From assembly GCA_965202655.1 (NCBI GenBank), contig CBDBBK010000001.1, positions 296,797 to 360,796 of the forward strand: 64,000 bases of DNA. The letters are read 5' to 3'. The translations under genes were made by a program, and so were the position numbers. This DNA comes from Vicinamibacterales bacterium (GTDB lineage Bacteria > Acidobacteriota > Vicinamibacteria > Vicinamibacterales > UBA8438). Positions 9,320-53,812 of the stretch are shown piece by piece (position 1 is the first letter of the stretch; each line of letters opens with the position of its first letter). The notes under the pieces were generated by a model, which saw nothing but the letters and a program-made list of their open reading frames with translations, was not told where the DNA came from and did no database searches.

Positions 9320-9374
9320 CCGCCATCACGGTTGCCGTCCCGGCTCCGGCTGGATGCATGGTGTCGCGGGCATG

Positions 9375-9560: not shown

Positions 9561-9679
9561 GTTCACGACCCTGCGGGCGCGGCATGACCGATGCCGCACC
9601 GCGCGTTCGGCGCGTGGAGACGCCGACTGGAGGTTCCGATGCGGTCCATCGTGGGCGCGCCGCCGCAGCGCCGCTTTCC

Positions 9680-35084: not shown

Positions 35085-35146
35085 GCGATCCGAGCCGGCG
35101 CGGCCGTCTCGCCGCCAACTCCGCTCCAGGGGCTCCTAGGCTGACG

Positions 35147-35998
35147 ATGCCTTCCGTTTCGCAGCCCCGTGTCGCCGCCGCAGCCCTGCTGGTTGCCGCG
35201 GGGGCCGGGGCTGTCGTGCTGTACGGCGCGAACCCGTCCGGACGGGAGGTTCAGGATCCGCCCGCGGTCGGCCAGGACGGCAAGGATGTGGAATGGGTTC
35301 CGACGCCGGACGCGCTGACCGAGACGATGCTCGACATGGCCGACCTCGGCCCGGACGATGTCCTGATGGACCTCGGCTCGGGCGACGGGCGGCTGGTAAT
35401 CGAGGCGGCGAGGCGCGGCGCACGCGCCATCGGCGTGGAGTACGACGCCCAACTCGTGGCGCTGTCGCGCGAGCGGGCCGCCGATGCCGGGATGTCCGGG
35501 CGCGCCTCGTTCCGGCAGGCGGATCTGTTCGAGGTCGATCTGTCGGAAGCCACGGTCGTCACCCTCTTCCTGCTCCCGGATCTGAACCTGCGGCTACGGC
35601 CGACGCTGCTCGACCTCGCCCCGGGCACGCGCATCGTCTCGAACACGTGGGACATGGGCGCCTGGGCGGCGGACGAGACGATCCAGATCGAGCCCTGCCC
35701 CGGCTTCTGTACGGCGCTCCTCTGGATTGTTCCCGCCCGCGTCGCCGGCGCGTGGGTGACGGCGAACGGGGACGACACGTTCCGCTTCGAACAGCGGTTT
35801 CAGACGGTCACCGGTACGTTCCGCCGGCAGGGCGGCGGCGCGCTGACCCTGGACGACGTCGCGCTCCTGGGTGACGCGCTGACGTTCCGCGCCGACGGCA
35901 CGCTCTACCGCGGCGTGGTGGACGGCGACACGATCACGGGTACGGCGACGGCCGGCGGCAGGCAGTCCGCCTGGACCGTCACGCGCGCGGGGCCGTAG
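35147..35998 (+). CDS. Membrane-anchored class I SAM-dependent methyltransferase
   Basis: ORF 34952..35998 trimmed to ATG 35147. N-terminal TM segment, then VLMDLGSGDGRLVIEAARRGARAIGVE (motif I) and VVTLFLLP. Confidence 0.75.
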   Translation: MPSVSQPRVAAAALLVAAGAGAVVLYGANPSGREVQDPPAVGQDGKDVEWVPTPDALTETMLDMADLGPDDVLMDLGSGDGRLVIEAARRGARAIGVEYDAQLVALSRERAADAGMSGRASFRQADLFEVDLSEATVVTLFLLPDLNLRLRPTLLDLAPGTRIVSNTWDMGAWAADETIQIEPCPGFCTALLWIVPARVAGAWVTANGDDTFRFEQRFQTVTGTFRRQGGGALTLDDVALLGDALTFRADGTLYRGVVDGDTITGTATAGGRQSAWTVTRAGP

Positions 35999-36023: not shown

Positions 36024-36680
36024 ATGAAAGCCAATCGTCACCGCATTGCCGCGGCCGCCGGGAAGCTCGCGGCCATCATCGTTCTGGCGCCGACGTACGC
36101 CATGACCGCCACCGCACAGGACCGCATGCCGGCGATTCCGGAAGCGGAGTTGACCGAGGCCCAGCGGGCCGCCGTCGAGGAGTTCAAGACCGTCCGCAAC
36201 CGAACCAGCGTCGGCGGCCCGTTCGTTCCCCTGCTTCGGAGCCCGGAAGTAATGAGCCGCGCCCGCAACGTGGGCGACTACGTTCGCTACCAGACGGCGC
36301 TCCCGCCGCGGCTGAGCGAGTTCGTCATCCTGCTCACGGCGCGCCACTGGACGCAACAGTACGAATGGTACGTCCATGCGCCGATCGCCGAACGCGAAGG
36401 GCTCGATCGTTCCATCATCGACGCCGTCGCGGACGGCCGCCGCCCCGGCGCCATGGCGGACGACGAGGGGGCGGTCTACGACTTCGTGACGGAACTGTTC
36501 CGCACGCGGGGAGTCAGCGATCCGACCTACGCCCGCCTCGTCGACCACCTCGGCGAACGCGGCGTCGTCGACACCATCGGCATCATGGGCTACTACCAGC
36601 TCCTCGCCATGATGATGAACACCGCTCGGACCCCGCTTCCGGACGGCGTCGAGCCGGCCCTGCCGGCGTTCCCCCGGTAA
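36024..36680 (+). CDS. Carboxymuconolactone decarboxylase (CMD/AhpD-like) family protein with signal peptide
   Basis: Signal-like N-terminus. FVILLTARHWTQQYEWYVHAPIA and the duplicated CMD-type helices (GVVDTIGIMGYYQLLAMMMN). Confidence 0.7.
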   Translation: MKANRHRIAAAAGKLAAIIVLAPTYAMTATAQDRMPAIPEAELTEAQRAAVEEFKTVRNRTSVGGPFVPLLRSPEVMSRARNVGDYVRYQTALPPRLSEFVILLTARHWTQQYEWYVHAPIAEREGLDRSIIDAVADGRRPGAMADDEGAVYDFVTELFRTRGVSDPTYARLVDHLGERGVVDTIGIMGYYQLLAMMMNTARTPLPDGVEPALPAFPR

Positions 36681-36762
36681 CCAAGATCGCTGTGGACCGT
36701 GCCAACCGATCCGCACGGCGCGCACTCTCATCCGGGGGAGCGATCCGCGAGGACGATTAAGT

Positions 36763-36822
36763 ATAACGGTATGGAAAAACCGATGATTTTGCATTTACAA
36801 CACGACGTGAATCTTGTTTAAT
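36763..36822 (+). promoter_or_regulatory. AT-rich promoter-like module, left copy (-35 TTTACA at 36794-36799, 17-nt spacer, -10 TTTAAT at 36817-36822)
   Basis: This is a local AT-rich island in a GC-rich window. It lies 51 nt upstream of the precursor ATG. An inverted, roughly 75-80 percent identical copy is found at 53834..53900. The shared core is CCGATGATTTTGCATTT(T)ACAA. Confidence 0.55.
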
Positions 36823-36872
36823 AGTTTGTGTAGCTTGAAAGGCTGTTTCGTTCGTTCAAAAGGAGATCATTG

Positions 36873-37139
36873 ATGGCTAAACAGTTTCAGACGTTTGAGG
36901 ACTTCTACGACTACGCCCGAAACAAGGCGGCGGAGGACGAGGAGTTCAGGTCCCGCCTGCTCGCAGATCCCAAGGCGGTGATCGAGGAAGAACTGGACCT
37001 GTCCATTCCGGACGGTCTCGATATCCAGATACACGAGGACACTGCCACGACCTCGCACTTCGTGCTTCCACCCTCGGCCAAGCTCGCCGAAGAGGACATG
37101 CGCGCCGTCGCCGGCGGCGGCTGGTGCTGCCCGGTCTAG
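36873..37139 (+). CDS. NHLP (nitrile hydratase-like leader peptide) family RiPP precursor
   Basis: AGGAG (36861-36865) lies 7 nt before ATG 36873. The product is MAKQFQTFEDFYDYARNKAAEDEEFRSRLLADPKAVIEEELDLSIPDGLDIQIHEDTATTSHFVLPPSAKLAEEDMRAVAGG-GWCCPV. The FxxxLLxxPKAxIExEL...P.G..I...E.T....xxVLPP...L..E....VAGG pattern is the NHLP leader. Confidence 0.85.
   Translation: MAKQFQTFEDFYDYARNKAAEDEEFRSRLLADPKAVIEEELDLSIPDGLDIQIHEDTATTSHFVLPPSAKLAEEDMRAVAGGGWCCPV
37119..37136 (+). other. Predicted core peptide GWCCPV (or WCCPV) after the double-glycine cleavage site
   Basis: The leader ends L(-12)AEED M(-7)RA V(-4)AG(-2)G(-1), matching the hydrophobic -4/-7/-12 spacing of C39-processed double-glycine leaders. 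Only 6 codons remain before TAG at 37137. Confidence 0.6.
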
Positions 37140-37270
37140 CTCCGGCAAGCTGTCTGGCTTGTCTGGTCAGCTCCAGGCGACCGTCCGGCCCCGTCGAGGC
37201 AGGTTGCTGCGGCTGACGGCGATGGGGTCAGGCAACTCGGCACGCGTCTGAGCGACGGGCTCGGGGTTGC

Positions 37271-38323
37271 TTGCGCGTGAGTGACAGCCTGTCCTTCGGG
37301 GGGCTTCTCGGAGGAATGCAGCGGCTGTTCCCGCAGGCCTTGCTGAGTGGAGACGGCCTCGAGCGTCTTCTGGCAGCGGCGGAACGATTGCCGCTTTGCG
37401 TGATCGACAAGCCATTCGGCTTCGAGTTTTCGCTCTGCAACGAAGCGGCTGCCGCGGATTTTTGTGTGATTGCCGCCCCCGGCTCCTCCCTTGCCGCGCA
37501 CTACATCCGTGCAGGCGCGGCAGCGCCGACCGGGTCCGCCGCGTCAGCCCTGGGCGCCTGCCTTGCCGGGAATGCCCGCGACCCCGCTTCCTTTCTTGCC
37601 AGCAGAGACGGCAGCATCATCCTCGAGTACGACGTTCCAGCGCATTGTCGGGAGGCACCGCCACCGCCCGGCATCTTCTTCGTGCCCGGCGACGTTTCGG
37701 TCGATGCCGCAAAGAAACTCCTCGACGATCCGGCCGACACCGTCGCCGCGCTCTGGGCCGCGGCCGGTTTGCGCGCCGACCCTGCGGAGTTGCGCCAGGT
37801 CGAGCGCGTGTCCGAGGTTTTCTCCGACGCCGCGTTGGTCGTCCAGGCGGGCGTGTTGCCGGGGCGGCCACAGCGCGCCGTGCGCCTCGTCGTGCATCGC
37901 ATCGACACCGCCGAGCTTCCCGGCCTGCTCGATCGGCTCCGATGGCCGGGACCTGCCGATACGGCCCTGTCGGTGACAGCGGCGACGAACGACCTGACCT
38001 CGCCCGGCGCCGTACTCAGCCTCGACGTCTCGGCGACCGGCGTCTCGCCGCGGCTCGGGCTGGAGTTGTTCCGGCCGGTGCAGCAGTTTTCCATCGACCG
38101 CACGGGCTGGCTGCCCATGATCGAACGGCTGACGGACAGACGGTGGTGCGTGCCTGCGAAGGCCGAGGGCCTGCGCGCGTGGCCGCGCACCGAACGGGTG
38201 CTCGGCCCCCACGGCGCCTACCGGGTTTACCAGTACATCAACCACGTCAAGGCCGTCGTGGATCATGGTCGCATCGTCGCCAAGGCCTACGTGGCCATGG
38301 TCGTCCGCCAGTTCGGCGGATGA
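37271..38323 (+). CDS. Hypothetical protein, 350 aa, no family recognised (candidate RiPP tailoring or recognition protein)
   Basis: ORF with TTG start at 37271. The start is uncertain; GTG 37277 and ATG 37316 are alternatives. Coding-like composition. It sits between the precursor and the CoA-transferase genes on the same strand. Confidence 0.6.
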   Translation: MRVSDSLSFGGLLGGMQRLFPQALLSGDGLERLLAAAERLPLCVIDKPFGFEFSLCNEAAAADFCVIAAPGSSLAAHYIRAGAAAPTGSAASALGACLAGNARDPASFLASRDGSIILEYDVPAHCREAPPPPGIFFVPGDVSVDAAKKLLDDPADTVAALWAAAGLRADPAELRQVERVSEVFSDAALVVQAGVLPGRPQRAVRLVVHRIDTAELPGLLDRLRWPGPADTALSVTAATNDLTSPGAVLSLDVSATGVSPRLGLELFRPVQQFSIDRTGWLPMIERLTDRRWCVPAKAEGLRAWPRTERVLGPHGAYRVYQYINHVKAVVDHGRIVAKAYVAMVVRQFGG

Positions 38324-38354
38324 GGCGGTGGAGCCGACCAGCGGAGGGTGTGTC

Positions 38355-39569
38355 TTGCCTGCATTGGACGGCCTGAGGATCCTCGACCTGACGCAGTTCG
38401 AGGCCGGTCCTGCTTGCACGCAGGCGCTGGCCTGGCTGGGCGCCGATGTCGTGAAGGTGGAGAAGCCCGGGCGCGGCGACCGGGCCCGCGGCGCGGACAG
38501 CGCCCGCAACGAAGCGTACGCCCCACTGTTCTGCGCCTGGAACGCCAACAAGCGGAGCCTGGCGATCGACATCGGCAGCGAGCAGGGCCACGCACTGTTC
38601 CTGCGCCTCGTGCCGCAGTTCGACGTGCTGGTGGAGAACTTCGGGCCCGGCGTGATGGAGCGGCTCGACATCGACCCTGACGCGCTGCGCCCCGTTGCTC
38701 CGGGGCTGATCTACGCACGCATCAAGGGTTTCGGAAACAGCGGCCCGTACGCCAGCTTCGCGGTCCAGCGGCCGATCGCGCAGGCCGCGGCCGGCGCACT
38801 TTCGATCAACGGACAACCTGACGGCCCCCCGACGATACCCGGCTCGATGGGCGATGCCAGCGCCGGGACGTATGCGGCGGTGGCCGTGCTGGCCGCCTGG
38901 GCGCAGAAGTTACGCACCGGCCGGGGTCAACAGATTGACCTCTCGATGCAGGAGGCCATGACGTTCTTCGTGCGCGGGCGCGGCGCCCTCGGCTCGCGTT
39001 GGGGCGCCCGGGCGGCGCCGCGCAGAGGCAACGCCGGCGACGCGCCGCCGGGCGATCTCTATCCCTGCAAGCCGTTCGGCCCCAATGACTACGTCTATCT
39101 CATGCCGATGACGGAGATCCACTGGGCATCCCTGTGCAGGGCCATGGGCCGACCCGAGCTGCGCACGGACCTGCGCTTCTACAGCATGCCCTGGCGCATC
39201 CAGAACCATCGGGCGCTGCACGCGGAGATCAGCTCCTGGACGAGAGCACGAACCAAGTTCGAGGCGATGGAGACCCTGGGAGCCGCGGGCGTCCCTTGCA
39301 GCCCATGCCTGGACACGACAGAGCTGCTTCGCGACAGGCACCTGGCCGAGCGCGGCTTCATCGAGGAAATGGACCTGCCGGTGCACGGCAAGGTGCGCGT
39401 GCCGGGCTTTGCACCACGCCTGTCCGGATCGCGGGTGCCGGTGAAGCGCCCGCCCCGCCTGGGGGAGCACACCGACGAGCTGCTGCGCGCCGAGCTCGCG
39501 TTGGACGATTCCCAACTCGATGCACTGCGAGAGGCCGGGGTGATCGGCGGCCCGCCGCGATGCGACTGA
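38355..39569 (+). CDS. Family III (CaiB/BaiF-type) CoA-transferase, copy 1
   Basis: ORF 38265..39569 trimmed to TTG 38355, 6 nt after GGAGGG, giving (M)PALDGLRILDLTQFEAGPACTQALAWLGADVVKVEKPGRGD. This parallels the ATG-initiated copy 2. GDASAG carries the putative catalytic Asp. 404 aa. Confidence 0.85.
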   Translation: MPALDGLRILDLTQFEAGPACTQALAWLGADVVKVEKPGRGDRARGADSARNEAYAPLFCAWNANKRSLAIDIGSEQGHALFLRLVPQFDVLVENFGPGVMERLDIDPDALRPVAPGLIYARIKGFGNSGPYASFAVQRPIAQAAAGALSINGQPDGPPTIPGSMGDASAGTYAAVAVLAAWAQKLRTGRGQQIDLSMQEAMTFFVRGRGALGSRWGARAAPRRGNAGDAPPGDLYPCKPFGPNDYVYLMPMTEIHWASLCRAMGRPELRTDLRFYSMPWRIQNHRALHAEISSWTRARTKFEAMETLGAAGVPCSPCLDTTELLRDRHLAERGFIEEMDLPVHGKVRVPGFAPRLSGSRVPVKRPPRLGEHTDELLRAELALDDSQLDALREAGVIGGPPRCD

Positions 39570-39594
39570 CGCGCCGAGTGCCCGGAGGTGCGAG

Positions 39595-40809
39595 ATGCCG
39601 GCATTGGATGGAATGAAAGTCCTCGACATGACCCAGTACGAGGCGGGCCCGTCATGCACGCAGGTGCTGGCGTGGTTCGGGGCGGACGTGGTCAAGATCG
39701 AGTCGCCCGGACGAGGCGACGGCGCCCGCGTGTTCGGCCGCGACGGCTCCAGCGGCTACTCGGCGTTCTTCTGCGCCTGGAACGCGAACAAGCGCAGCCT
39801 GGCGGTGGACCTCGGCCGCCGCCGGGGCCGGGAGTTGCTGCTGCGCCTGATACCGGCGTTCGACGTCTTCGTGGAGAACTACGGTCCCGGCGTGATCGAA
39901 CGGTTCGACCTCGGCTACGAGACGCTTGGCGCCATCAACCCGGGCCTTGTCTACGCCCGCATCAAGGGTTTCGGCGCCAGCGGCCCGGACGCGGGCTACG
40001 ACAGCGTCGACCCGACGGCGCAGGCCGCCGCCGGGGCATTCTCCGTCAACGGCGAGGCGACCGGGCCGCCGCTGATGCCCGGTCCGACGATGGCCGACGC
40101 GGGCTCCGGCCTGCAGGCGGCGCTGGCGGTGCTGGCCGCGTGGACGCAGAAGCAGCGGACCGGTGAAGGGCAGTTCATCGAGTTGTCGATGCAGGAGGCC
40201 GTAACGTACTACCTGCGCTCCCACTTCTTCGGACGCTCGATGAGGCGTGGGCAGGCGGCACCGCGCACCGGCAACAGGGTCGGGCTGCCACCGGCCGGCT
40301 TGTATCCGTGCAAGCCGTTCGGCGCCAACGACTACATCTGTCTCCAACCTCTCACCGAGGGCCACTGGGACGCCCTGTGCCGGGCGATCGACCGCCCCGA
40401 CCTGCGCGCCGATCCGCGCTTCTGCAGCCCGCGCTGGCGCCTGCAGTACGCTGACGCGCTGCGCGAGGAGATCGGCTCCTGGATCCGCGAACGCACCAAG
40501 TACGAGGCGATGGAGACCATCGCCGGCGCCGGCGTGCCCTGTGCGGCGTGTCTGGACACCGTTGACCTGCATAGGGACCGCCACCTGGCCGCGCGCGGCT
40601 TTATCCACGATCTGGATCTGCCGGTGCACGGAAGGGTGCGGATGCTGGGGTTCGCTGCGGGGCCTTCGGCGGCGTGCGCCGCGATGAAGCCCCCGCCCAG
40701 GCTTGGCGAACATACAGGCGAGGTGCTCAACGCGGAGTTGGACCTGAACGACGCGGAAATCGAGGCGCTGCACGACGCCGGCGTCATTCGGGATGCCGCT
40801 CGCCGGTAG
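39595..40809 (+). CDS. Family III (CaiB/BaiF-type) CoA-transferase, copy 2
   Basis: MPALDGMKVLDMTQYEAGPSCTQVLAWFGADVVKIESPGRGD; ADAGSG Asp motif. It is 404 aa, the same length as copy 1, and about 60 percent identical to it by eye. Confidence 0.9.
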   Translation: MPALDGMKVLDMTQYEAGPSCTQVLAWFGADVVKIESPGRGDGARVFGRDGSSGYSAFFCAWNANKRSLAVDLGRRRGRELLLRLIPAFDVFVENYGPGVIERFDLGYETLGAINPGLVYARIKGFGASGPDAGYDSVDPTAQAAAGAFSVNGEATGPPLMPGPTMADAGSGLQAALAVLAAWTQKQRTGEGQFIELSMQEAVTYYLRSHFFGRSMRRGQAAPRTGNRVGLPPAGLYPCKPFGANDYICLQPLTEGHWDALCRAIDRPDLRADPRFCSPRWRLQYADALREEIGSWIRERTKYEAMETIAGAGVPCAACLDTVDLHRDRHLAARGFIHDLDLPVHGRVRMLGFAAGPSAACAAMKPPPRLGEHTGEVLNAELDLNDAEIEALHDAGVIRDAARR

Positions 40810-42127
40810 GCGAACGCCGCGCTTCCGCAAGCTCATGACCTCGTCTCCTCGCCTTTCGCACGACAATCCTCCACCCTCGCACCCGCGCGATTTCGGCGGC
40901 CTCGTCCACGGGGCTCCCGCCAGGAGCGTTCATCCCTCCTCTGCCCGCGAGGTCTCGCTTGCGTTTCGTGCGGCTCGCTCCGACGGGCTCCCTGTCGCGG
41001 TGCGCGGCGCGGGACACTCGCAGTCGGGACACACCGTCCTTCGCGATGGGATGGTCATCGATACTTCACGTCTTTGCGGGGTAACGCTCCATGAGGGGGA
41101 CATCCTCGAAGTCGGCGGCGGCCAGCCGTGGGGCGGCGTCATCGACGCGCTGCACGGGACCGGGTTGACCGTGCCGGTGCTCACCGACAGCGCCTTTCCG
41201 ACCGTGGGCGGAACGTTGTCGGCAGGTGGTTTCGGCACCGCTTCGGTGCGCTTCGGCGCGCAGGTCGGGCACGTCGAGCGCCTCGAAATGGTCACTCCCG
41301 CGGGCGATCTCGTGACGTGTTCACGCGAGGCCGAGCGTGAGCTCTTTGACGCGGTACGCGCTGGACAGGGTCAGTTCGGGGTGATCACCCGGGCGTGGCT
41401 GCGGCTTCGCCGGTGCCCTTCGCGTATTCGCTACTATCGCTTGCGCTACGTCGACATGGATCGTCTCGCCGACGACGTGGAGCGTCTGTATTCGGATCCT
41501 CGCTATGGCCACCTGCGTCTGGAGCTTCGGCCGCATGCGGGCGAAGCGCTGTTTGACATCGGCATCGAGTACGAGCCTCCCGGACCTTCGCCCCTCGAAC
41601 TTCTTTTCGGTCTCGGTTGCGTTCAGGCGCAGTTCTGGACTGACGCCGACGACATCGGCCGCGCCGGCCTCATTCCGGACGATCAGTTTCCGAGGCAGCG
41701 CTTTTATCCCTGGCGCGACTGGTTTCTTCCGTGGAGTGCGCTCCGTCGACTCCTTGCACGTCCGCCCGTGCCCCTCGACCGGCTTCCCGACCCGCCCGGC
41801 TGGACCGGTTGCTTCTTCATCGGCGGCGCGCACATCGATGCGCCTGCGCTCGTACTGCCCCCGGGCGACCGGTTGTTCACGTACTCCGTCCTGCCCATGT
41901 TCGAGCGGCGCGCGGACGCGCTCGAGGCCGCCGCCCGTCTCGACGTTGCCGATCGCGTGATTCGCGATCTCGGCGGTTGCGCTTACGTGTCGGGCGCGAC
42001 CGGCTACGATGCTTCCCGCTGGCGGGCGCATTTCGGGGAGGCGCGCCATGCCCGTCTCGTCCGGCTTCAGCGTGCTGTCGATCCTGCCGGTCTTCTTCGC
42101 CGGCCGGGGCTTCCCTTCTGCGCCTGA
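40793..42127 (+). CDS. FAD-binding PCMH/VAO-type oxidoreductase (cytokinin dehydrogenase-like)
   Basis: VHPSSAREVSLAFRAARSDGLPVAVRGAGHSQSGH (FAD_binding_4-like with a GHS His), TVGGTLSAGGFG, and ELFDAVRAGQGQFGVITRAWLRL. The start is ATG 40793 (17-nt overlap with the upstream gene) or ATG 40835. Confidence 0.8.
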   Translation: MPLAGRRTPRFRKLMTSSPRLSHDNPPPSHPRDFGGLVHGAPARSVHPSSAREVSLAFRAARSDGLPVAVRGAGHSQSGHTVLRDGMVIDTSRLCGVTLHEGDILEVGGGQPWGGVIDALHGTGLTVPVLTDSAFPTVGGTLSAGGFGTASVRFGAQVGHVERLEMVTPAGDLVTCSREAERELFDAVRAGQGQFGVITRAWLRLRRCPSRIRYYRLRYVDMDRLADDVERLYSDPRYGHLRLELRPHAGEALFDIGIEYEPPGPSPLELLFGLGCVQAQFWTDADDIGRAGLIPDDQFPRQRFYPWRDWFLPWSALRRLLARPPVPLDRLPDPPGWTGCFFIGGAHIDAPALVLPPGDRLFTYSVLPMFERRADALEAAARLDVADRVIRDLGGCAYVSGATGYDASRWRAHFGEARHARLVRLQRAVDPAGLLRRPGLPFCA

Positions 42128-43350
42128 GCGGGGCGTTGGACGGGCTTCTGCGCGAGAGCGGCGTCGACGAGCTCGCGGAGGGAACGTGCCTGGAGTTTTA
42201 CCCGGGCGGCGCGCAGCTCGGAAATTGGAACGGGAGGACCACCCCAGGCCACGCCCCGGCGCAGTGTGACAATCACGGAGCGCCACCAACTGTAGACGAT
42301 GACCGCACTGGCCACCGGAAGCGCCAGTCCGGTCCACCACCGGAAGCGGGAGGCTCGGGCGATGTAGATGGCGACCCCCCAGGCAGTCACTGCAGAAGCA
42401 GCGAACAACGCGGCGGCCGCAGCGTCCACGGCAGCCAGGGCGGCGCCCAGCACGACCGGTGCAATCCCCATCCACAGCAATCCGACCGTCTGCACCAGCA
42501 CGGCCGAAATCCGGTAGTCCTGGAGGGCGAAGAAATTGTTCGCCGTTCCGTGGACCAGGTCCCGGACGGACTGATACCACTCGCATCGCACCCCGGATTG
42601 GGCGCGGAGCAGGTCCGAGCAGCGGCCGGTCAACTTCACCAGTCGACCCAGTTGACGGGCCTCGTCGGGGCGCAGGGCGACCTGCCTGTGTCCCCCGATG
42701 GCGTGGTAGGAATCCGCCCGGAACAGGTTGCAGGCGCCGCTCCCGAAGGAGGCCGTGCTCCCGGAGTCGCGAACCTGCCAGAGCCTCCCCGTGACGTGCG
42801 CGCCCCAATGGAACACGATCACGCAGGCTTCCAGCATGGGCCCCGGCATCGTCAACGTGGCCAGAACGGCGACATGGTCCAGCTTGTTTCTCAGGAGGTG
42901 GCGCACCCCGCGCCTCACCGCCTCCTGCCCGAACACCACGTCCCCATCGGTAAAGAGGAGCACGTCCCCGCTCGCAGCCAGCGCGCCGCGCCAGCAGGCG
43001 TGGTTCTTCCCGAACCATCCCGCGGGCAACTTCTCGATGTGAATCACCTTGAGACGGTCGTCCCGCTCGCTCAGCCGATCCGCGATCTCGCCGGTGCGGT
43101 CGTCGGAACGGTCATCGACGAAGATGACCTCGTAGTCCGGGTAGTCGAGGACGAGCAGCGATGCGAGCGCCCGTTCCACCCGGAGATCCTCGTTCCGGGC
43201 AGCCACCACCACCGACAGCCGGGGAAACGGCGGATCTTCGTCGCTGCGTTCCCCGATCTCTTCGAGACTGAAGACGTGCTGGTAGCTGTAGAGGGTGATG
43301 AGCGCCATGGCCACCCAGATGACCAGTGTCACGGCGGCGATGATGAGCAT
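42067..43350 (-). CDS. Integral-membrane family 2 glycosyltransferase (CrtQ/hopanoid-associated GT-like)
   Basis: N-terminal TM segment, LSVVVAARNE, VIFVDDRSDDRT and FTDGDVVF (DxD-type), then several C-terminal TM segments. Its 3' end overlaps the convergent flavoprotein gene by 61 nt. Confidence 0.8.
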   Translation of the reverse strand: MLIIAAVTLVIWVAMALITLYSYQHVFSLEEIGERSDEDPPFPRLSVVVAARNEDLRVERALASLLVLDYPDYEVIFVDDRSDDRTGEIADRLSERDDRLKVIHIEKLPAGWFGKNHACWRGALAASGDVLLFTDGDVVFGQEAVRRGVRHLLRNKLDHVAVLATLTMPGPMLEACVIVFHWGAHVTGRLWQVRDSGSTASFGSGACNLFRADSYHAIGGHRQVALRPDEARQLGRLVKLTGRCSDLLRAQSGVRCEWYQSVRDLVHGTANNFFALQDYRISAVLVQTVGLLWMGIAPVVLGAALAAVDAAAAALFAASAVTAWGVAIYIARASRFRWWTGLALPVASAVIVYSWWRSVIVTLRRGVAWGGPPVPISELRAARVKLQARSLRELVDAALAQKPVQRPAQAQKGSPGRRRRPAGSTAR

Positions 43351-43427
43351 GGTGGTGAATGTCGTCCGCGCTTCTCCTCACCCGGCGCCATGTGGGGCAG
43401 AAGCGTCGGCGTGGGGCGCTCGCGCCC

Positions 43428-46394
43428 TCAAGTCAACTGGCGGCTCGCCAGGTCGCGGAAAATGCCCGGCGTCTCGATCAGTTGTGCAAAGGTCCCTTGC
43501 TGCGCCACCCGGCCCTCGTCGAGCACGTAGATGCGGTCCACGTTGCGGATTGTGGACAGCCGGTGCGCGATGACGATGCGGGTGACGGCTAGTTCCTCGA
43601 TTCGCTCCATGATCGTCGCCTGCGTGTCGTTGTCGAGCCAACTGGTGGCCTCGTCGAGCAGCAGCACGCGCGGACTCCGCACCAGGGCTGCAGCCAGCAT
43701 GATGCGCTGGACCTGCCCGCCTGAGAACACCGCCGAGTTCTCGGTGATGACGGTGAACATGCCCATCGGCATCGACCTGATGTCGCGGTCGACCGCGGCA
43801 AGGCGGGCGGCGCGCCAGGCGTCGTCCAGCGTCAGGTCCGTTGCTATGCCGATGATGTTGTCGCAAACCGTCCGGGGTCGCAACGAGCTGTCTTGCGTCA
43901 CCACGCCGACCTGTTGAGTCAGGGCGCGGCGGTTGATGCGGTCGAGATCGTGGCCGTCGTAGTACACGACGCCGGACGACGGCTTCTCGAGTCCAAGGAT
44001 AATGCGCAGCATGGTGCTCTTGCCGGCGCCGGAACCGCCGACCAGGGCAACGAACTCGCCGGGCTGCACATCGATGGAAACATCGCGCAGCACCGGAGGG
44101 CCTCCCTCGGTATAGCGGAAACTGACCCTGTCCAGGCGTACGCCGCCGCGCAACTCCGGCAGGAGGGCGTCCCCGGCGGTGCTCTTCGGCGCCGCTTCGA
44201 GGATCGGAGAAACCTGTTCGACGGCCGGTACGATGGCCGCCACACCGGACATGGAGTGGCCGAGCGCGGTAATCGCCGACATGAAGACCATGTAGGCCGC
44301 GTAGACGGTCAGGAAGGCGCCTGCGGACAGTGCGGCGGGACCCATTTCGACGGCCACGGCGAAAAGCGCGGCGGTAGCCAGCAGTGGCGCTGCGGCCGTG
44401 AACGCGACCAGGTGTTCGTGCAGGGCGCCGACCTTCATCGCGCTGCGCGTCTGTTCCCGGTAGTCTCGCGCCCACCGTGTGAATGCCGTCCATTCCTTCC
44501 CGGCGGCGCGCAGTTTGTGCGCGGCGCCGATCAACTGCAGCAGGACGCCGGCGAGCGAGCGCTGCGCGGCGACCAGCCGTCGGTGATGAGGTACTTGCCG
44601 TGCGCCTAGCGTGATGGTCACGGCCAGCGCGACAAGGCCGCCTGCAAGACCCAGCCACCCCATCGCGACGTCGTAGACGAACAGCAGGACGAACGTTGGT
44701 AGCAGGAAAACGGTCGACAGCAGAGCCCCCATGACGACGCCCGACACCTGATCGCGCAGGCCCTGGAACGCCATGGCGCGCATTGCCAGGTCGCCGGACG
44801 TGAAGTCGCGGAAGAAGGCTGCTGGCAGGTCCAGCAGGCGGTCCCACAACGCCGCCGTGATGCGCGCGGTGACGCGACCCTCCAGACGCATCAGGGCCGT
44901 GCCTTCACGCACCTGGAGCAAGGCCGCCGCCAGCGCCAGCAACAGCATCCCCGCCGTCAGCCAGGCCAGCATGTCCACGCGCCCCGCCGGCGCCACCTCG
45001 TCGGCGAAGACGCCAAGCAGGACCGCGGGAACGAGCATGGCGAGACCGGACAGCAGTCCAGCCGTTACGAACCTGAACACGTCGCCTTTCCACCGGCGGA
45101 ACGCGACCCGGACCAGGTCGCGGGCGCCCGACGTCCGACCAGGAGGTAACGACTGATAGAAGAAGATCGCATTCGAGCGCAGCAGGGCGGCCCTACCGGC
45201 ATTGACAGGCTGTGCCCGTCCCGTTGTCGGGTCCACCATGCGGTAGCGCCCGAAGCGGCCCGGAAGCAGGGCGATCGGCGCGCCGTCCTCGCGCCGGAAC
45301 GCCAGCATCGAGCCGCTGTCGCCAAGCCACCAGCGATCGCTTGCGCGGAGCGCGACCTCGCGGCCGCGTACTCCAGACGCGGTCAGAATACGACCCAGGG
45401 ATTGACCGGTCTCGGGGTCATTCTGGCTGCCCTGTGGGGCAGGCAGCGTCTGGAACCGAATGCCCTCGTGGCGCCCAACCAGGACCAGCGCCGCCTGCAG
45501 GGCGCCGCCGCTCGATTTCGGCCGGGAGCCGCGCGCGTCGTTTACGTCAAAAAGTCTTCGGCGCGCTGCATCTTCGCTTTCCCGGCGATATCGCGTTTGC
45601 GCGGCGCGCAGGTTCGCCGCATCGGCCAACAACAGGCGGCGGTTGAGGTCGTCGGCGGCTAGCGCCAAGCGCTGGAATTCGGCCAGCGCCGCCAAGAGGC
45701 GCCCCGCGCGATGCAACTCCCGAGAGGAAGCGCCCTGCAGCCGGGTCGGGTTGGAAACGCTGACCCAACTGCCGGGCGCCATGGGCACGAAGCCGGAGTC
45801 GGTCCGGCCAGGCTCCTCGGTGCCGAGGAATGCGAGGCCGCCATCCCTGCTTGACGTCCAGACGACGCCGCGCTTGGCGGAAACGACCGCGCCAGGATCC
45901 AAGTCCACCGTGGCGCCGGCGGAAAGAAAACACTCGGTGTGCGGCCGATGCGTCACGTCCAGAGCTACGGTGGCCGAGATTTCGGCGATCCAGAGATCCA
46001 CCTGATCGACGACGGCGCCGCCCTCGTCCGCCGCCAGGAGGTCGTCGCGCGACACGCGCCGCAGTTCGGAATCGGACAGCCCCTTCGCGACAAGCGCGTT
46101 CGGCCCTTCTGCAGTCGGGAATAGGAGACGGCCGCGCGCCGCGCGAAGGAGGTGCTTGAACTCAACGAATTCGCCGTCCTGCTCGCGCGCCACGAACACG
46201 TTCACCGAACCGCGGGCGATGAACCACAGGGCATCGGGATCGTCGAGGCGAACGGGCCGGTTGCCACCGCCCGCGAACGGCGTGCCGTGCGCCAGGGCGA
46301 AGTTCGCCAGCCATTCGGCGGCAGCGTCAACTGCGGCGTCCGAGACCCGCAAGCCGGTGGGAACGTGCTTCCGTCCGGGGGCTTCCGCCATCAC
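43428..46394 (-). CDS. NHLP-type bacteriocin export ABC transporter, permease/ATPase subunit with a long N-terminal extension (possible cNMP-binding-like domain)
   Basis: 988 aa. The N-terminal ~300 aa include LWFIARGSVNVFVAREQDGEFVEFKHL, which looks jelly-roll-like. A 6-TM block follows, then Walker A GGSGAGKST, signature FSGGQVQR and LLLDEAT. GTG 46394 or ATG 46391 abuts the TAG of the upstream gene. Confidence 0.85.
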   Translation of the reverse strand: MMAEAPGRKHVPTGLRVSDAAVDAAAEWLANFALAHGTPFAGGGNRPVRLDDPDALWFIARGSVNVFVAREQDGEFVEFKHLLRAARGRLLFPTAEGPNALVAKGLSDSELRRVSRDDLLAADEGGAVVDQVDLWIAEISATVALDVTHRPHTECFLSAGATVDLDPGAVVSAKRGVVWTSSRDGGLAFLGTEEPGRTDSGFVPMAPGSWVSVSNPTRLQGASSRELHRAGRLLAALAEFQRLALAADDLNRRLLLADAANLRAAQTRYRRESEDAARRRLFDVNDARGSRPKSSGGALQAALVLVGRHEGIRFQTLPAPQGSQNDPETGQSLGRILTASGVRGREVALRASDRWWLGDSGSMLAFRREDGAPIALLPGRFGRYRMVDPTTGRAQPVNAGRAALLRSNAIFFYQSLPPGRTSGARDLVRVAFRRWKGDVFRFVTAGLLSGLAMLVPAVLLGVFADEVAPAGRVDMLAWLTAGMLLLALAAALLQVREGTALMRLEGRVTARITAALWDRLLDLPAAFFRDFTSGDLAMRAMAFQGLRDQVSGVVMGALLSTVFLLPTFVLLFVYDVAMGWLGLAGGLVALAVTITLGARQVPHHRRLVAAQRSLAGVLLQLIGAAHKLRAAGKEWTAFTRWARDYREQTRSAMKVGALHEHLVAFTAAAPLLATAALFAVAVEMGPAALSAGAFLTVYAAYMVFMSAITALGHSMSGVAAIVPAVEQVSPILEAAPKSTAGDALLPELRGGVRLDRVSFRYTEGGPPVLRDVSIDVQPGEFVALVGGSGAGKSTMLRIILGLEKPSSGVVYYDGHDLDRINRRALTQQVGVVTQDSSLRPRTVCDNIIGIATDLTLDDAWRAARLAAVDRDIRSMPMGMFTVITENSAVFSGGQVQRIMLAAALVRSPRVLLLDEATSWLDNDTQATIMERIEELAVTRIVIAHRLSTIRNVDRIYVLDEGRVAQQGTFAQLIETPGIFRDLASRQLT

Positions 46395-48586
46395 TACTCG
46401 GCCTCCATCAGTCGACGGTACAGGCCGTCGTCATCTTCCATCAGTTCCTGATGGGTGCCGCGCTGGGCTTCCCGACCGCGGTCGAGCACGACGATCAGAT
46501 CGCTGTCCCGGATCGTGCTCAGGCGATGGGCGATGATCAGGCAGGTGATGCCGCGGCTGCGCAAGGCATCGTCGATACGCAGCTCGGCGATCGGATCGAG
46601 AGCGCAGGTGGCCTCGTCGAGAATCAGAACGGTTGGATTCGACACCAGCGCCCTGGCGATTTCGAGGCGCTGCTGCTGGCCGCCGCTGAAGTTGCGCCCA
46701 CCCTCCAGTACGGGAGCGTCGTAACCCCGGGGCAGGGCGGTGATCTCCGCATGGATGTCGGCATCCCTGGCCGCGGCCACTAAGTCCTGATCCGGCGTTT
46801 CCCGATCCCACATGGTCAGGTTGTCGCGCACCGAGCCGGCGAACAGGAAGATGTGCTGGTCGACAAGCGATACCGAGTCCGTCAGAAGATCGCGCGGCAC
46901 CTCGGCGAGGGCCTGACCGTCGAACAGGATCTCGCCGGACCAGGGCCGATGGGTTCCCGTCACCAGAGACACCAGCGTGGACTTCCCCGAACCACTCGGC
47001 CCGACGACGGCTACGCGCTGGCCGGGTTCGACGACCAGACTGAAGTCCTTGACCAGGGGTTCCCCGGTGTTCTTGTAGCCGAACGTCACGTTCCGCAACT
47101 CCACCCGTCCTGTCAGTCGCAACCGCTTGGCGAACGCCGGCGGCCGTTCGGCCAGCTCTTCGTCGCACTTGGCCAGGACGGCGTCCTCTGGCGCGTCGAA
47201 GACATCGTCGAGGCGCTGCAGGTGGCCCTCGAGCACCTGGAACAGGTCCGCGAACTGCACGAACCGCCCGATCGGCAGCAGGAAACTCGCCGCCAACACG
47301 TAAAAGGCCATCATCGCACCCAGCGTCATGTCGCCCGACATCACGCGCACGCCACCCAGGCCGAGCACGGCGGCGTTGCCGGTGATCAGGAACAGACCCG
47401 GCAGCGCCGCAATCACGTGGCCAAGCTCGGTGAAGCGCTGTCGGGCCAGCAGCTCGCGGGCCTGATAGCCGGTGAAGTGGACGAAGAAATCGTTCTCGCC
47501 AGCTATCGCCTGCAGCCTGTCGATGGAGCGCAATCCACTCATCCCGGCCCCCTGCATGTTGCCGGCCTCGCGCTGCAGTAGGCGGTTCTCCTCGATCCGC
47601 GAGCGGGTCACCGCTCGGGTCAGAAGAGCGCTCGCCGCACCCAGTGCGACCACTACCCCGGCCAGCAGCGGGTCGTAAACGATCATCAGCACCACGAACA
47701 GGAGGCTGGTGACCAGTTCGATGCCGACACCCGCGAACTGGCCCGTCGCCACGGCGGCGACTTCGTTGATGGACTGCATCCTCGCGGTCAGATCTCCGGC
47801 GTAGCGGTGGGCGAAGAACTCCGTGCGTAACCGGAAGAGGTGAGTGATGAAGTAGTCGGCACGACCAAGCGAAAGCCGCACCGAGAGCAGGCGCAGGCAG
47901 CGCTCCCGCAGCCACGTGAGCAGGTAGACAAGCCCGGCCGCTACCGTCGCGCCGATGACCAGCCCCCCGCCCCACGAGGGCTCTCGACCGCTCAGCACGT
48001 AGTCTACGAACACGTTGAGCAACAGCGGCAAGGCCAGCGCCGTCAACGACAGCAGCAACCCGCAGGTGGACGCGAAGGCAAGAGGCGCCTTGCCTTCCCG
48101 CAACCAGGGCCAGAGCCGGCGCAAGACGCCAGGCCTGCGTCCACCCGGCTCGAAGTCCGCGCCCGGCTCGAAACTCACGGCCACGCCGGTGAACCGCTTG
48201 CCGAACTCGTCCTCGTCGACCGTCCTGCGTCCACCGTTGGGATCGTTGATGTAGTAGCGGCCGCGCGCATAGCCCTCCAGCACCAGGAAATGGCCGAAGT
48301 CCCAGAACAGGATGAGCGGCATGGGCATGGCATGGAGCTGATGGGGCTCCCTGCGCCAGCCTTGCGGTTCGAGGCCGAAGTGCCTGGCGGCTCGCAAGAG
48401 GTCGACGCCGTCGCAGCCGTCGCGAGTCACGTCGCAGACCGCGCGCAGGTCTTCTATCGGCACCCAGCGGCCAAAGAACGCGAGCACGATGCCGAGGCTG
48501 ATCGCGCCGCACTCGGCGGCGTCGTTCTGCAGCAGCGTCGGCGTGCGCACGCGGCCCCGGCGTTTGGGGTTGACCGCGAAACCCAT
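46394..48586 (-). CDS. NHLP-type bacteriocin export ABC transporter with N-terminal C39 peptidase domain
   Basis: ORF 46394..48754 trimmed to ATG 48586, which shares one nucleotide with the HlyD stop. C39 motifs: QNDAAECGAISLGIVL (Cys), GHFLVLEGY (His), YINDPNGG (Asp). TM block; GPSGSGKST; FSGGQQQR; ILILDEAT. Confidence 0.9.
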   Translation of the reverse strand: MGFAVNPKRRGRVRTPTLLQNDAAECGAISLGIVLAFFGRWVPIEDLRAVCDVTRDGCDGVDLLRAARHFGLEPQGWRREPHQLHAMPMPLILFWDFGHFLVLEGYARGRYYINDPNGGRRTVDEDEFGKRFTGVAVSFEPGADFEPGGRRPGVLRRLWPWLREGKAPLAFASTCGLLLSLTALALPLLLNVFVDYVLSGREPSWGGGLVIGATVAAGLVYLLTWLRERCLRLLSVRLSLGRADYFITHLFRLRTEFFAHRYAGDLTARMQSINEVAAVATGQFAGVGIELVTSLLFVVLMIVYDPLLAGVVVALGAASALLTRAVTRSRIEENRLLQREAGNMQGAGMSGLRSIDRLQAIAGENDFFVHFTGYQARELLARQRFTELGHVIAALPGLFLITGNAAVLGLGGVRVMSGDMTLGAMMAFYVLAASFLLPIGRFVQFADLFQVLEGHLQRLDDVFDAPEDAVLAKCDEELAERPPAFAKRLRLTGRVELRNVTFGYKNTGEPLVKDFSLVVEPGQRVAVVGPSGSGKSTLVSLVTGTHRPWSGEILFDGQALAEVPRDLLTDSVSLVDQHIFLFAGSVRDNLTMWDRETPDQDLVAAARDADIHAEITALPRGYDAPVLEGGRNFSGGQQQRLEIARALVSNPTVLILDEATCALDPIAELRIDDALRSRGITCLIIAHRLSTIRDSDLIVVLDRGREAQRGTHQELMEDDDGLYRRLMEAE

Positions 48587-49404
48587 CAGTCGCCGCCGTT
48601 CCCGAAGAGCAGCGAGGCGAATGAACGGTGGCCGAGGACGATCCGCATCGTGCCGATGGCGCCATCGATGATCGACCGCGGTTCCGGGTCCGTCAGTGTC
48701 GCGCGCAGCAGATGGGCACGTACCGGTGGCTCGAGCCCGAACTCGGTCAGCCACGGCGCCGGCGGTACGACGCGGGGGGATACGCGCTCGACGCGCGCCG
48801 ACAGGATTCGAGTTGCGCCCGTGCCGGGCACGATCAGGCGCACCTGCGCCTGCATGCCAGGCGCAAGCTGCAGGGCCTCGTCGCGCGTGACGAACGCGAT
48901 CGCCTCCATGTGACCGGCGGACGCCGTGCGAATACGGGCCGCGAGTTCGCCGGCCGCGACCCGCTGGCCCGCCGTCAGGGGCAGCGTCACGAGTTCGCCG
49001 TCAGCCGAAGCCACGATATCGTGTGTCGTGAAGTTGTCGGCCCCGCCTTGCGCAGTCTCGGAGCGCGGGGCGGCAGGGGCGCGGAGGACAGGCGTTTGCA
49101 CGCGCGCGATGGACTGACCCTGCGCCACCGTGTCGCCGACCTCCGAGAACACATCGACGACCACGCCGGGCGCGCCGGCAACCACGGCAACGCGCTCCCC
49201 GGGCTGGACCAGCACCGTCTCGACAGAAAGGCTGCGCTCCACCCGCCCGATCAGGCCATAGGCCAGCAGGGCGACCAGCACCACGCCCAGTCCCGACACC
49301 AACAGCCACTCGTGGGGCGCCGTAACCTGTAGCCTGGCGTCGATGGCCTCCCGCTCCGCACGTTGGGCCAACGCCTTCTCACGGAACACGGTTTGGAACT
49401 GCAA
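48586..49404 (-). CDS. NHLP-type bacteriocin system HlyD-family secretion protein
   Basis: FREKALAQRAEREAIDARLQVTAPHEWLLVSGLGVVLVALLAYGLIG is an N-terminal anchor. Barrel-sandwich/lipoyl-like segments follow (PGVVVDVFSEVGDTVAQGQSIARV). About 270 aa, as in the short NHLM HlyD proteins. Confidence 0.8.
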   Translation of the reverse strand: MQFQTVFREKALAQRAEREAIDARLQVTAPHEWLLVSGLGVVLVALLAYGLIGRVERSLSVETVLVQPGERVAVVAGAPGVVVDVFSEVGDTVAQGQSIARVQTPVLRAPAAPRSETAQGGADNFTTHDIVASADGELVTLPLTAGQRVAAGELAARIRTASAGHMEAIAFVTRDEALQLAPGMQAQVRLIVPGTGATRILSARVERVSPRVVPPAPWLTEFGLEPPVRAHLLRATLTDPEPRSIIDGAIGTMRIVLGHRSFASLLFGNGGD

Positions 49405-52630: not shown

Positions 52631-53812
52631 TCATCGACCCACGGCCATTGATTGGGCCGGCTCGCGGTACTCGCGACGGTATTCGCCGAACGAAATCAAC
52701 TTGCCGCGCCGCTCGTCCCAGAGCGCCAGAGGCAGTGCCTTCAACGCTTGCAACAACGTGATTCGGTGGGCGGACCACAGTGTCGGATTCTCGTCGTGAC
52801 AGCGCTGCAGGCGGTAGTTCGGAATGCGGGTGCTCAGATGGTGCACGTGGTGCAGACCGATACTGGCGGTCAGCCACTGCAGCGGTTTCGGGAGTGCGAG
52901 CCAGGATGAGCCTCGCAACCCGGCCTCGAAGAAGTCCCACTCGCCCGACCGGCGCCAGTAGGCGTCCTCGAACTGGTGCTGCGCGTGGTTGATCACGCCG
53001 GAGAACGCGCCTGCATACACCGCGATCATGCCTTGGATGATCACGACCTGCACGAGACTTTCAATCCCGGCGACAAGCCAGATGCCCACCAGCACCGCCG
53101 CCAGGGCGGCGTTGGTCCACCATACGGAGCGCCATTCCCGCGCCCAGGAAAGCGGTGCGGACGCGGGAAAACGGTTCACGAACAGGAACTGCGCCGGAAC
53201 CAGAACGCCGATCATCCAGGGGTTCCGTTGCAAGCGATACGCAAGCCGGCGCCACCATCCCAGTGCGCGGTACTCGGCGACCGTGAGCGTCGGGAGGTCA
53301 CTGCCCAACGGCTTGTCCAGGTTGCCGGAGTGGGCGTGGTGCTCTACGTGAATCCTTTTCGCGTAGTCGTAGGGCGTCAGGGCCACGCCCGCGACTACCC
53401 TGCCGACAACGTCGCACACCCGCTGCGACGTGAAGTACGAGTGGTGGCTGCAGTCATGCTGAATGATGATCAGCCGCACCATCAGACCCGCTGCTGGCAG
53501 CGCGACAATCGCCGTCAGCCAGTAGCCGACGTCCGCGCTCCGGAGCAGAACGGTCCACGCGACGCCGTACAATGCCAGGGTGACCGCCAGTTGCAGCAGA
53601 CTGCGACGGTTGTCCGGCCGCTCGTACGGCGCCAGAATGGATCTCGCACGTTCCTGCGAGATCGCGTTGCGGAGCAGCGTCTCAAGGGCGCCCGGTATCG
53701 CGTCAGCAGACTTGCCGGTCACCCCATCGCCTCCGCGACTCTTGAGCAAGTCCTTGCGGTCGAGTCGGATTCTGTCGGCAGCCGGTCTGGCGCATGTTTC
53801 GTCGGTCCGCAA
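52631..53812 (-). CDS. Membrane fatty-acid desaturase family protein
   Basis: His boxes HDCSHH, HVEHHAHSGN and HHVHH. The ORF starts at TTG 53812, but in-frame GTG 53722, which lies 7 nt after GGAGG, is a better-supported start. Confidence 0.8.
   Translation of the reverse strand: MRTDETCARPAADRIRLDRKDLLKSRGGDGVTGKSADAIPGALETLLRNAISQERARSILAPYERPDNRRSLLQLAVTLALYGVAWTVLLRSADVGYWLTAIVALPAAGLMVRLIIIQHDCSHHSYFTSQRVCDVVGRVVAGVALTPYDYAKRIHVEHHAHSGNLDKPLGSDLPTLTVAEYRALGWWRRLAYRLQRNPWMIGVLVPAQFLFVNRFPASAPLSWAREWRSVWWTNAALAAVLVGIWLVAGIESLVQVVIIQGMIAVYAGAFSGVINHAQHQFEDAYWRRSGEWDFFEAGLRGSSWLALPKPLQWLTASIGLHHVHHLSTRIPNYRLQRCHDENPTLWSAHRITLLQALKALPLALWDERRGKLISFGEYRREYREPAQSMAVGR

Follow-up and report, generated by a model that had tools for sequence, protein, structure and literature searches.

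The DNA analyzed here, hereafter the window, is a stretch of 64,000 nucleotides from a Vicinamibacterales bacterium (GenBank assembly GCA_965202655.1, contig CBDBBK010000001.1, positions 296,797 to 360,796). Our subject is a pair of adjacent genes within it, CoAT1 and CoAT2, that encode family III CoA-transferases inside a gene cluster for a peptide that is ribosomally synthesized and then modified post-translationally (RiPP). Because the window is rich in GC (about 68%), genes were chosen by third-position GC content (GC3). An earlier note on this DNA had described two 404-aa proteins of the CaiB/BaiF type, encoded head to tail 25 nt apart, about 60 percent identical by eye and both retaining the Asp that is catalytic in related enzymes. 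All of this held. CoAT1 (38355..39569, + strand) and CoAT2 (39595..40809, + strand) are each 404 aa long and are separated by a 25-nt spacer (39570-39594). BLASTP aligned the two paralogs at 60% identity (238/398 positions, E 3e-161). The family profile PF02515 matched both end to end (profile positions 1-366), with 337 bits for CoAT1 (E 1.5e-100) and 344 bits for CoAT2 (E 1.4e-102) against a cut-off of 23.3. CoAT2 starts at an ATG with GGAGG 6 nt upstream. We read CoAT1 from a TTG because a GGAGG lies 7-8 nt 5' of it, the resulting N-terminus (MPALDG) is common to both proteins, and CoAT1 orthologs at other loci begin at the same residue. A longer CoAT1 open reading frame from an ATG at 38265 would run into the preceding gene.

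The Asp of SMGDASAG in CoAT1 and of TMADAGSG in CoAT2 aligns with the catalytic Asp of E. coli YfdW (LGDSNTG), and it is kept in 17/17 CoAT1 orthologs, 16/16 CoAT2 orthologs and 105 outgroup sequences. By profile and alignment, both proteins are genuine family III CoA-transferases with the predicted catalytic Asp in place. Both are under purifying selection, with ratios of non-synonymous to synonymous substitution (dN/dS) of 0.16-0.30 for CoAT1 and 0.13-0.28 for CoAT2. This constraint is tighter than that on X350, the protein encoded just upstream (0.17-0.41). We considered whether the two are formyl-CoA transferases (Frc) and rejected this identity, as both fall below the cut-offs of the Frc models TIGR03253 and NF003809 (318 and 331 bits for CoAT1, 299 and 311 bits for CoAT2, against 504 and 442) and the glycine-rich loop GGGGQ of YfdW/Frc is gone. 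It is replaced by GN.-.GLPPaG in CoAT2 and GNa-GdvPPgd in CoAT1, overall G-[DL]-x-P-P.

The pair lies in an operon that begins with a peptide precursor. The precursor gene (36873..37139, + strand) encodes 88 aa with an NHLP leader (TIGR03793, 61.2 bits against a cut-off of 50.9), a GG motif and the C-terminus AGGGWCCPV, giving the core (G)WCCPV. It is followed by the gene for X350 (37271..38323, + strand), a 350-aa protein predicted from an AlphaFold2 model and Foldseek to be an ABBA-fold aromatic (Trp) prenyltransferase. CoAT1, CoAT2 and a gene for a FAD-linked oxidase (FAD_binding_4; 40793..42127, + strand) come next. The packing is tight: 31 nt separate X350 from CoAT1, 25 nt CoAT1 from CoAT2, and CoAT2 overlaps the flavoprotein gene by 17 nt. 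Further downstream, on the opposite strand, are two NHLP-type exporters. One is the permease/ATPase subunit of a bacteriocin export ABC transporter (43428..46394, - strand; TIGR03797, 721.9 bits against 709.4). The other is an ABC transporter with a C39 peptidase (46394..48754, - strand; TIGR03796, 864.9 against 853.3 bits; PF03412; 5' start uncertain), whose peptidase domain is of the type that cleaves after GG. With a precursor and exporters all scoring above their model cut-offs, the claim that the genes belong to a precursor-led RiPP operon stands.

A scan of one genome per species yielded 70 loci with X350. The pair was found in 12 of them (L001-L012), the ones in which X350 shares 62% identity or more with that of the window. 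Look-ups in metagenomes added five contexts (L074/L075, L076, L077, L078/L079 and L080) and a sixth that is decayed (L096). Thus counted, the linkage recurs in at least 18 contexts, with both genes recognizable in 17, and the two are adjacent in 16 of these 17, one gene lying between them in L078. The GC content of the loci that bear the pair ranges from 51 to 72%. At L074/L075, X350 is 52% identical to the window's, the GC content is 51% and the core is WTWCNQVV. The cores of L076, L077 and L078/L079 are WCSPI, WCSPV and DMDWCSPA, and that of L080, which is broken by insertion sequences, is HAMDWCSPV. In L078 (3696-7644) the cluster is rearranged to precursor, CoAT2, X350 and CoAT1, with all parts present. 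L002 and L009 are two copies of the cluster on one chromosome, with different cores. The genes 5' of the window's precursor are missing from the other CoAT-bearing loci, and the cluster therefore moves as a unit whose left boundary is the precursor.

All placeable proteins of the CoAT2 clade (at least 72% identity, plus that of L074 at 65%) are encoded in such clusters. Four of them (P0127, P0128, P0133 and P0134) were inspected directly; most other matches were placed indirectly with cluster-bearing loci, or lie on contigs too short to judge. Together with the GC spread, the rearrangement in L078, the two copies in L002 and L009 and the left boundary, this placement suggests that the pair is a conserved, built-in component of the cluster and not a passenger. 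On this evidence, the pair very probably belongs to the peptide pathway. The earlier note had raised the concern that the linkage might be unique to this locus and had called for a survey of gene neighborhoods; that concern is now dispelled, since the linkage recurs through rearrangement and across hosts of widely differing GC content.

Some copies of the cluster have degenerated. In L012 (10961-12384) CoAT1 is largely deleted and CoAT2 is frameshifted, and in L096 (6062-8598) X350 and CoAT1 both carry internal deletions. In L080 (5392-8546) an insertion splits X350. L008 lacks a precursor, and its X350 is truncated at the 5' end. In two further loci, L002 (11082-13607) and L006 (11085-13607), both complete-chromosome metagenome-assembled genomes, CoAT1 and CoAT2 form one open reading frame of 847 or 848 aa with an Arg-rich spacer of about 35-40 aa. 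This may be either a natural fusion or the result of a lost stop codon or an assembly error. We did not rely on these frames as proof of a heteromer, as the Arg-rich linkers look like translated spacer and stop-free, in-frame read-through is not rare in DNA of 70% GC.

The precursor core covaries with the pair. The pattern WC.{2,3}[VIA]$ matched 18 of the 19 precursors of CoAT loci and none of the 223 precursors elsewhere. The core of the pair-bearing subclade can be written x(0-5)-W-C-x(2-3)-[V/I/A]-COOH, and the orthologous precursors end in xWC[S/C/T]P[V/I]. W and C are adjacent in every core from a CoAT locus. The side N-terminal to them varies by 0-5 residues, whereas the Cys keeps a set spacing of 3-4 residues from the free carboxylate. 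The lone exception to the motif is L012, with the core DMDWCTSSGAV, where CoAT1 is deleted and CoAT2 frameshifted. In L096 (core KTGGWCSPNDL) the motif has decayed alongside the gutted CoAT1 and X350. Vicinamibacterales genomes also hold X350 loci from which both the pair and the motif are absent (L048, L053, L061 and L062), so the pair follows the peptide and not the host. Across the precursor sequences compared, the presence of the pair predicts the C-terminal sequence of the peptide.

Outside the clusters, the relatives of the pair are metabolic. For CoAT2, 405-aa homologs at 62-66% identity number in the hundreds, most of them in marine Gammaproteobacteria, and the nearest outside relatives of the paralogs are single-copy genes at 60-65% identity, in metabolic settings with no peptide near. 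One 405-aa homolog adjoins housekeeping genes, a GntR regulator, a distant second CoA-transferase and an HMGL-like lyase. A scan of JGI metagenomes with CoAT1 yielded members of the metabolic clade almost exclusively and so served as a negative control. A single gene was present in 76 of the 80 loci obtained, and only at L096 did an NHLP precursor or X350 lie within 7 kb; apart from this decayed locus, the scan gave no new core variants. Uncharacterized marine gammaproteobacterial enzymes of 405 aa, such as P0141, P0167 and P0233, resemble the pair over their full length (60-65% identity), in size and in the same Asp, but they are single-copy, have no NHLP precursor or X350 near and keep an Arg that the pair has lost.

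A neighbor-joining tree resolved three clades (CoAT1, CoAT2 and metabolic) with mutual identities of 60-65%, CoAT2 being weakly nearer the metabolic clade. From these three clades it follows that the pair goes back to a small-acid enzyme and that its duplication preceded the diversification of the clusters. The Arg in question, conserved in the metabolic clade near the position of YfdW Tyr139, is replaced in both CoAT1 and CoAT2. Together with the three separate clades, this suggests that the paralogs neofunctionalized.

X350 itself belongs to a much larger family. Its sequence matched no Pfam or NCBIfam model at E<0.01. Its AlphaFold2 model, built from an alignment of 21 sequences, reached a pLDDT of 91 and a pTM of 0.90. 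Foldseek matched this model only to ABBA/DMATS aromatic prenyltransferases (probability 1.0, TM 0.5-0.58, identity about 11%), over 20 solved chains that include DMATS1, AnaPT, TleC, EpzP, AmbP1, CloQ, FgaPT2 and IptA. The ABBA-barrel fold of X350 is thus predicted with high confidence. A word-indexed search found more than 140 homologs, and a profile search of 1.84 billion representative proteins gave 2,889 matches at E<=1e-3. The family spans at least ten phyla, and the hosts of its 70 loci fall in Vicinamibacterales, Dehalococcoidia/SAR202, Acidimicrobiia, Spirochaetia, Binatia, Gamma- and Alphaproteobacteria, Gemmatimonadetes, Nitrospirales and Latescibacterota. At these loci, a good number of the isolate names resemble what we take to be the naming of sponge-microbiome studies, and the hosts of the cluster are marine bacteria, probably sponge-associated.

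NHLP precursors adjoin X350 in all 70 loci, often as arrays of 5-20 genes, and NHLP exporters are usually near. The cores are hypervariable but rich in Trp. In the 242 cores that could be parsed, Trp was present in 224 (93%) and Trp or Tyr in 238; Trp accounts for 8.9% of the residues in the cores, and 78 of them end in it. Gene content and sequence thus define the family by three parts: a precursor with an NHLP leader, an ABBA prenyltransferase-like protein and NHLP-type C39/ABC exporters. The simplest reading of the modeled fold and of these cores is that X350 is a leader-dependent peptide Trp prenyltransferase. From its distribution, X350 is the family-defining enzyme and the CoA-transferase pair an accessory of one subclade only, a relation that the earlier note had missed. 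A literature search found no paper describing the NHLP-linked X350 family, and reviews on sponge peptides and on peptide prenylation did not mention NHLP-linked prenyltransferases or CoA-transferases.

Several loci of the wider family are elaborate. Arrays of 10-20 NHLP precursor genes whose short cores differ were seen in L025, L028, L033, L038, L049 and L070, and three or four X350 paralogs in L028, L033, L038, L046 and L056, which looks like a combinatorial peptide library. L078 also encodes two paralogous proteins of about 330 aa (7649-8668 and 8678-9667, - strand) that match no Pfam or NCBIfam model. Such a pair recurs beside the X350 clusters of L010, L022, L033, L036, L038, L043, L046, L053-L055, L062, L066 and L067, making it a candidate for a further family of accessory enzymes spread over several phyla. 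None turned up in the window's cluster, although no search of the window was aimed at them.

The remaining genes of the window's cluster are less uniformly shared. For the flavoprotein (PF01565, E 2e-26), whose start is uncertain because of an alternative ATG at 40835, the nearest solved relatives are plant cytokinin dehydrogenases (E 6e-37), enzymes that oxidize an N-linked prenyl group. Its orthologs were found in L001-L009. Homologs of about 30% identity follow X350 in Dehalococcoidia, Acidimicrobiia, Gemmatimonadetes and Latescibacterota, where the cores are VDVNWDTVNIS or VDVYPV. Convergent with the operon on the minus strand lie the genes for a glycosyltransferase, the two exporters and an HlyD-like adaptor, then an RND pump and a desaturase. 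By model matches, the first is a membrane GT2 glycosyltransferase (42067..43350, - strand), HpnB/GT21-like and a possible accessory; its gene sits between those of the oxidase and the exporter, with a 61-nt overlap with the oxidase 3' end. It is present in the window, L001, L006, L009 (as fragments) and L077 (on the opposite side of the cluster) and missing from most clusters. The adaptor is a short HlyD-type secretion protein of 272 aa (48586..49404, - strand; HlyD_3) that scores 71 bits with TIGR03794, below its cut-off of 156. It is syntenic after the first ABC transporter gene in L002, L003, L005, L008, L010, L074, L076 and L077, and judged by its sequence it is atypical for NHLP clusters. 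Since its called reading frame overlaps the 5' end of the C39 transporter gene, the start codons of both are uncertain.

The desaturase gene (52631..53812, - strand) encodes a DesA-like membrane fatty-acid desaturase that matches PF00487 and reaches 273 bits with NF052548 against a cut-off of 500. It had no match among solved structures. By tblastn this gene was found, besides the window, only in CoAT-bearing loci (L003, L010, L011, L012, L076, L077 and L080), in varying position and orientation and often beside an RND pump. Pfam scans of the GC3-supported open reading frames in 29173-56244, a set that left out the short frame 35905-35982, found no halogenase, YcaO, radical SAM protein or lanthionine synthetase. 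A scan of 36500-43500 for promoters and terminators gave no signal that exceeded the shuffled background. Two genes lie just upstream of the precursor: one for a methyltransferase (34952-35998), whose weak matches include a daptide-type RiPP methyltransferase model, and one for a carboxymuconolactone-decarboxylase-like protein (36024-36680). Both are probably outside the cluster, since neither is found near other CoAT-bearing clusters.

Family III CoA-transferases are interlocked dimers whose conserved Asp is joined to the acyl group as an anhydride, and a free carboxylate is the only acceptor known for them (PMC9196870). If the acceptor here is the peptide, the pathway could run as follows. 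X350 would prenylate the Trp indole of the full-length precursor, and the prenyl attachment would be oxidized by the cytokinin dehydrogenase-like flavoprotein. CoAT1 and CoAT2, as an interlocked heterodimer like BbsEF (benzylsuccinate CoA-transferase), would take CoA from a cellular acyl-CoA through a cycle of Asp anhydride and Asp-CoA thioester and pass it to a carboxylate of the peptide, most simply that of the C-terminal Val or Ile. The invariant Cys, 3-4 residues upstream, would then attack the peptidyl-CoA thioester and CoA would leave, giving a 13- or 16-membered thiolactone with no use of ATP. Finally, the C39 ABC transporter would cut after GG and export a prenylated peptide of 5-10 residues.

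We favor the C-terminal carboxylate as the target because the side N-terminal to WC is variable, the spacing between Cys and carboxylate is constant, and the peptide ends in a hydrophobic residue (V, I or A); the fixed C-terminal position of the motif leans toward the peptide C-terminus over a free acid. To the reading taken as a whole, in which the pair serves this one subclade as its dedicated tailoring enzyme within a pathway of C-terminal CoA activation and thiolactone formation, we give a probability of roughly 0.35. Its parts differ in strength. A heteromer is probable, by analogy with BbsEF and from the constant 1:1 presence of the two genes. C-terminal CoA activation with capture by the Cys, suggested by the motif, is doubtful when considered by itself. 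The full scheme, in which a heterodimer accepts a ribosomal peptide as its acid and an ATP-independent thiolactone forms from the C-terminal CoA thioester of a prenylated peptide, is slightly more doubtful again.

Comparison with known systems gives partial precedents. BbsEF also consists of two paralogous family III subunits encoded side by side, and its chains in PDB 9fn0 match CoAT2 (A, E 3e-23; B, E 3e-42). It is a catabolic enzyme with a free dicarboxylic acid as substrate and succinyl-CoA as donor (PMC10818641). Unlike the pair, it is found in no peptide context; the relationship is distant, and CoAT1 and CoAT2 stem from a separate duplication beside another clade. The succinyl-CoA:malate CoA-transferase SmtAB of Chloroflexus is a similar two-subunit enzyme. 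The closest solved structures are those of Frc/YfdW (E 4e-65, about 35% identity), which have the same fold, N-terminal CoA-binding motif and catalytic Asp. The pair differs from them in lacking the insertion at YfdW residues ~213-235 and in its replaced glycine loop.

We found no description of this system in a search of the RiPP and peptide gene cluster literature for CoA-transferases, CaiB or family III. The earlier note had stated that no RiPP pathway was known to use family III, and this is qualified in one respect: to judge by the title of a paper (Org. Lett. 2025, 27, 12148, cited in PMC12636437 and PMC13060382), the lipolasso peptides reportedly use a CoA-transferase for tyrosine lipidation, an enzyme that may or may not be of family III. 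Going by the title, that system differs in being a lasso-peptide pathway with a Tyr target and apparently a single enzyme. For X350, the nearest parallel is MppC, a leader-dependent lanthipeptide Trp prenyltransferase that geranylates Trp C5 and needs its Nif11 leader (PMC12715784). MppC and the ABBA/DMATS enzymes share with X350 a predicted ABBA barrel, a leader that is long and structured, and Trp as the probable acceptor, but X350 has no Pfam match, is about 11% identical to solved prenyltransferases, is paired with NHLP leaders and has no lanthionine synthetase beside it. The srp proteusins (SrpI brominase and YcaO) likewise combine NHLP precursors with a conserved Trp and are spread across sponge-symbiont phyla; they differ in the core (LCCCW) and in bromination and azoline formation. 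With a different core, and no halogenase or YcaO in the Pfam scans described above, we ruled out a brominated proteusin cluster of the srp type. If the favored thiolactone model holds, there would also be a functional analogy with the autoinducing peptides (AIP) and ComX, in that a very short exported peptide would carry both a thiolactone and a prenylated Trp. In AIP (AgrD/AgrB) the thiolactone joins a Cys to the C-terminus, and AgrB makes the thioester by cleaving a C-terminal tail. ComX carries a prenylated Trp made by ComQ, an enzyme of the polyprenyl-synthase type. CoA and NHLP leaders have no part in either pathway.

Several points weigh against the C-terminal activation model. We know of no family III CoA-transferase that accepts a peptide, and the active sites of the family are buried at the dimer interface. 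With 60-65% identity to metabolic enzymes, a small-acid substrate fits at least as well as a peptide. The motif counts (18/19 against 0/223) are not phylogenetically independent, because all CoAT clusters belong to one X350 clade (at least 52% identity); motif and enzymes could be linked by common descent alone, and the constant C-terminal position could be a requirement of X350 or the exporter instead of the CoA-transferases. The desaturase, which has the same restricted distribution as the pair, may point to lipid or isoprenoid chemistry, for which the thiolactone model has no place. Every locus was taken from a metagenome assembly, and what is shown here comes from comparing sequences.

It is accordingly worth asking what else the pair might do. 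It could act on a free small acid, whose acyl group, carried on CoA or held directly on the enzyme, would finish in thioester linkage to the Cys (S-acylation) or esterified to the next Ser/Thr. The identity to single-copy metabolic CoA-transferases, the restriction of the conserved Cys to the pair-bearing subclade, the CoA-transferase reported to lipidate Tyr in lasso peptides and the co-occurring desaturase-like gene are all consistent with this. We regard it as rather unlikely, since it leaves the placement of the Cys 3-4 residues from a free V/I/A C-terminus unexplained, the cluster has no acyltransferase gene to move the acyl group, and the Arg of the metabolic clade is lost in both paralogs, for which reason the substrate has probably changed. 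A very improbable variant places the activated carboxylate on the prenyl group of the Trp: the desaturase/hydroxylase-like enzyme and the flavoprotein would turn a prenyl methyl into an acid, the pair would activate it, and the adjacent Cys would capture it in a W-C bridge. This would account for the constant adjacency of W and C, for the shared distribution of desaturase and pair, and for the resemblance of the flavoprotein to an oxidase of N-prenyl groups; PF00487 also includes hydroxylases of methyl and isoprenoid groups. Yet it needs several unproven oxidation steps, does not explain the fixed C-terminal distance, and involves a flavoprotein that is also present in subclades without the pair.

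It is likewise improbable that both genes are metabolic passengers, held in the cluster by descent with no part in making the peptide. Their nearest outside relatives are indeed ordinary single metabolic genes, and all CoAT-bearing clusters fall in one X350 clade. Nevertheless, the genes have been kept through the L078 rearrangement, at 51-72% GC, in two copies in one genome and with different flanks; they are tightly spaced or overlapping between biosynthetic genes; every placeable clade member lies in a cluster; and the precursor motif decays where the pair decays (L012 and L096). A last alternative concerns quaternary structure only. CoAT1 and CoAT2 might form two homodimers that carry out two successive CoA transfers, rather than one heterodimer. 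Both paralogs keep the catalytic Asp and are under similar constraint, most family III enzymes are homodimers (PMC9196870), and X350 lies between the two genes in L078. Set against this are the strict 1:1 co-occurrence at all loci, the BbsEF precedent and, weakly, as it may be an assembly artefact, the single reading frame in L002 and L006. We consider two homodimers possible, if somewhat unlikely.

Family III CoA-transferases are known from small-acid catabolism. The loci described here suggest that a duplicated pair of them was recruited into a cluster for a peptide natural product and kept across hosts. By sequence the two are plain members of family III, neither Frc nor close to BbsEF; if the tailoring role holds, the pair would represent a new function for the family. 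Should the favored chemistry prove true, the peptide would be the first peptide substrate for a family III CoA-transferase, and the ATP-independent thiolactone a new activation logic for RiPP macrocyclization; the product would then perhaps be a signaling molecule of sponge symbionts. With a substrate of 5-10 residues and few genes, the system is small and testable, and the X350 RiPP family around it is large and appears undescribed.

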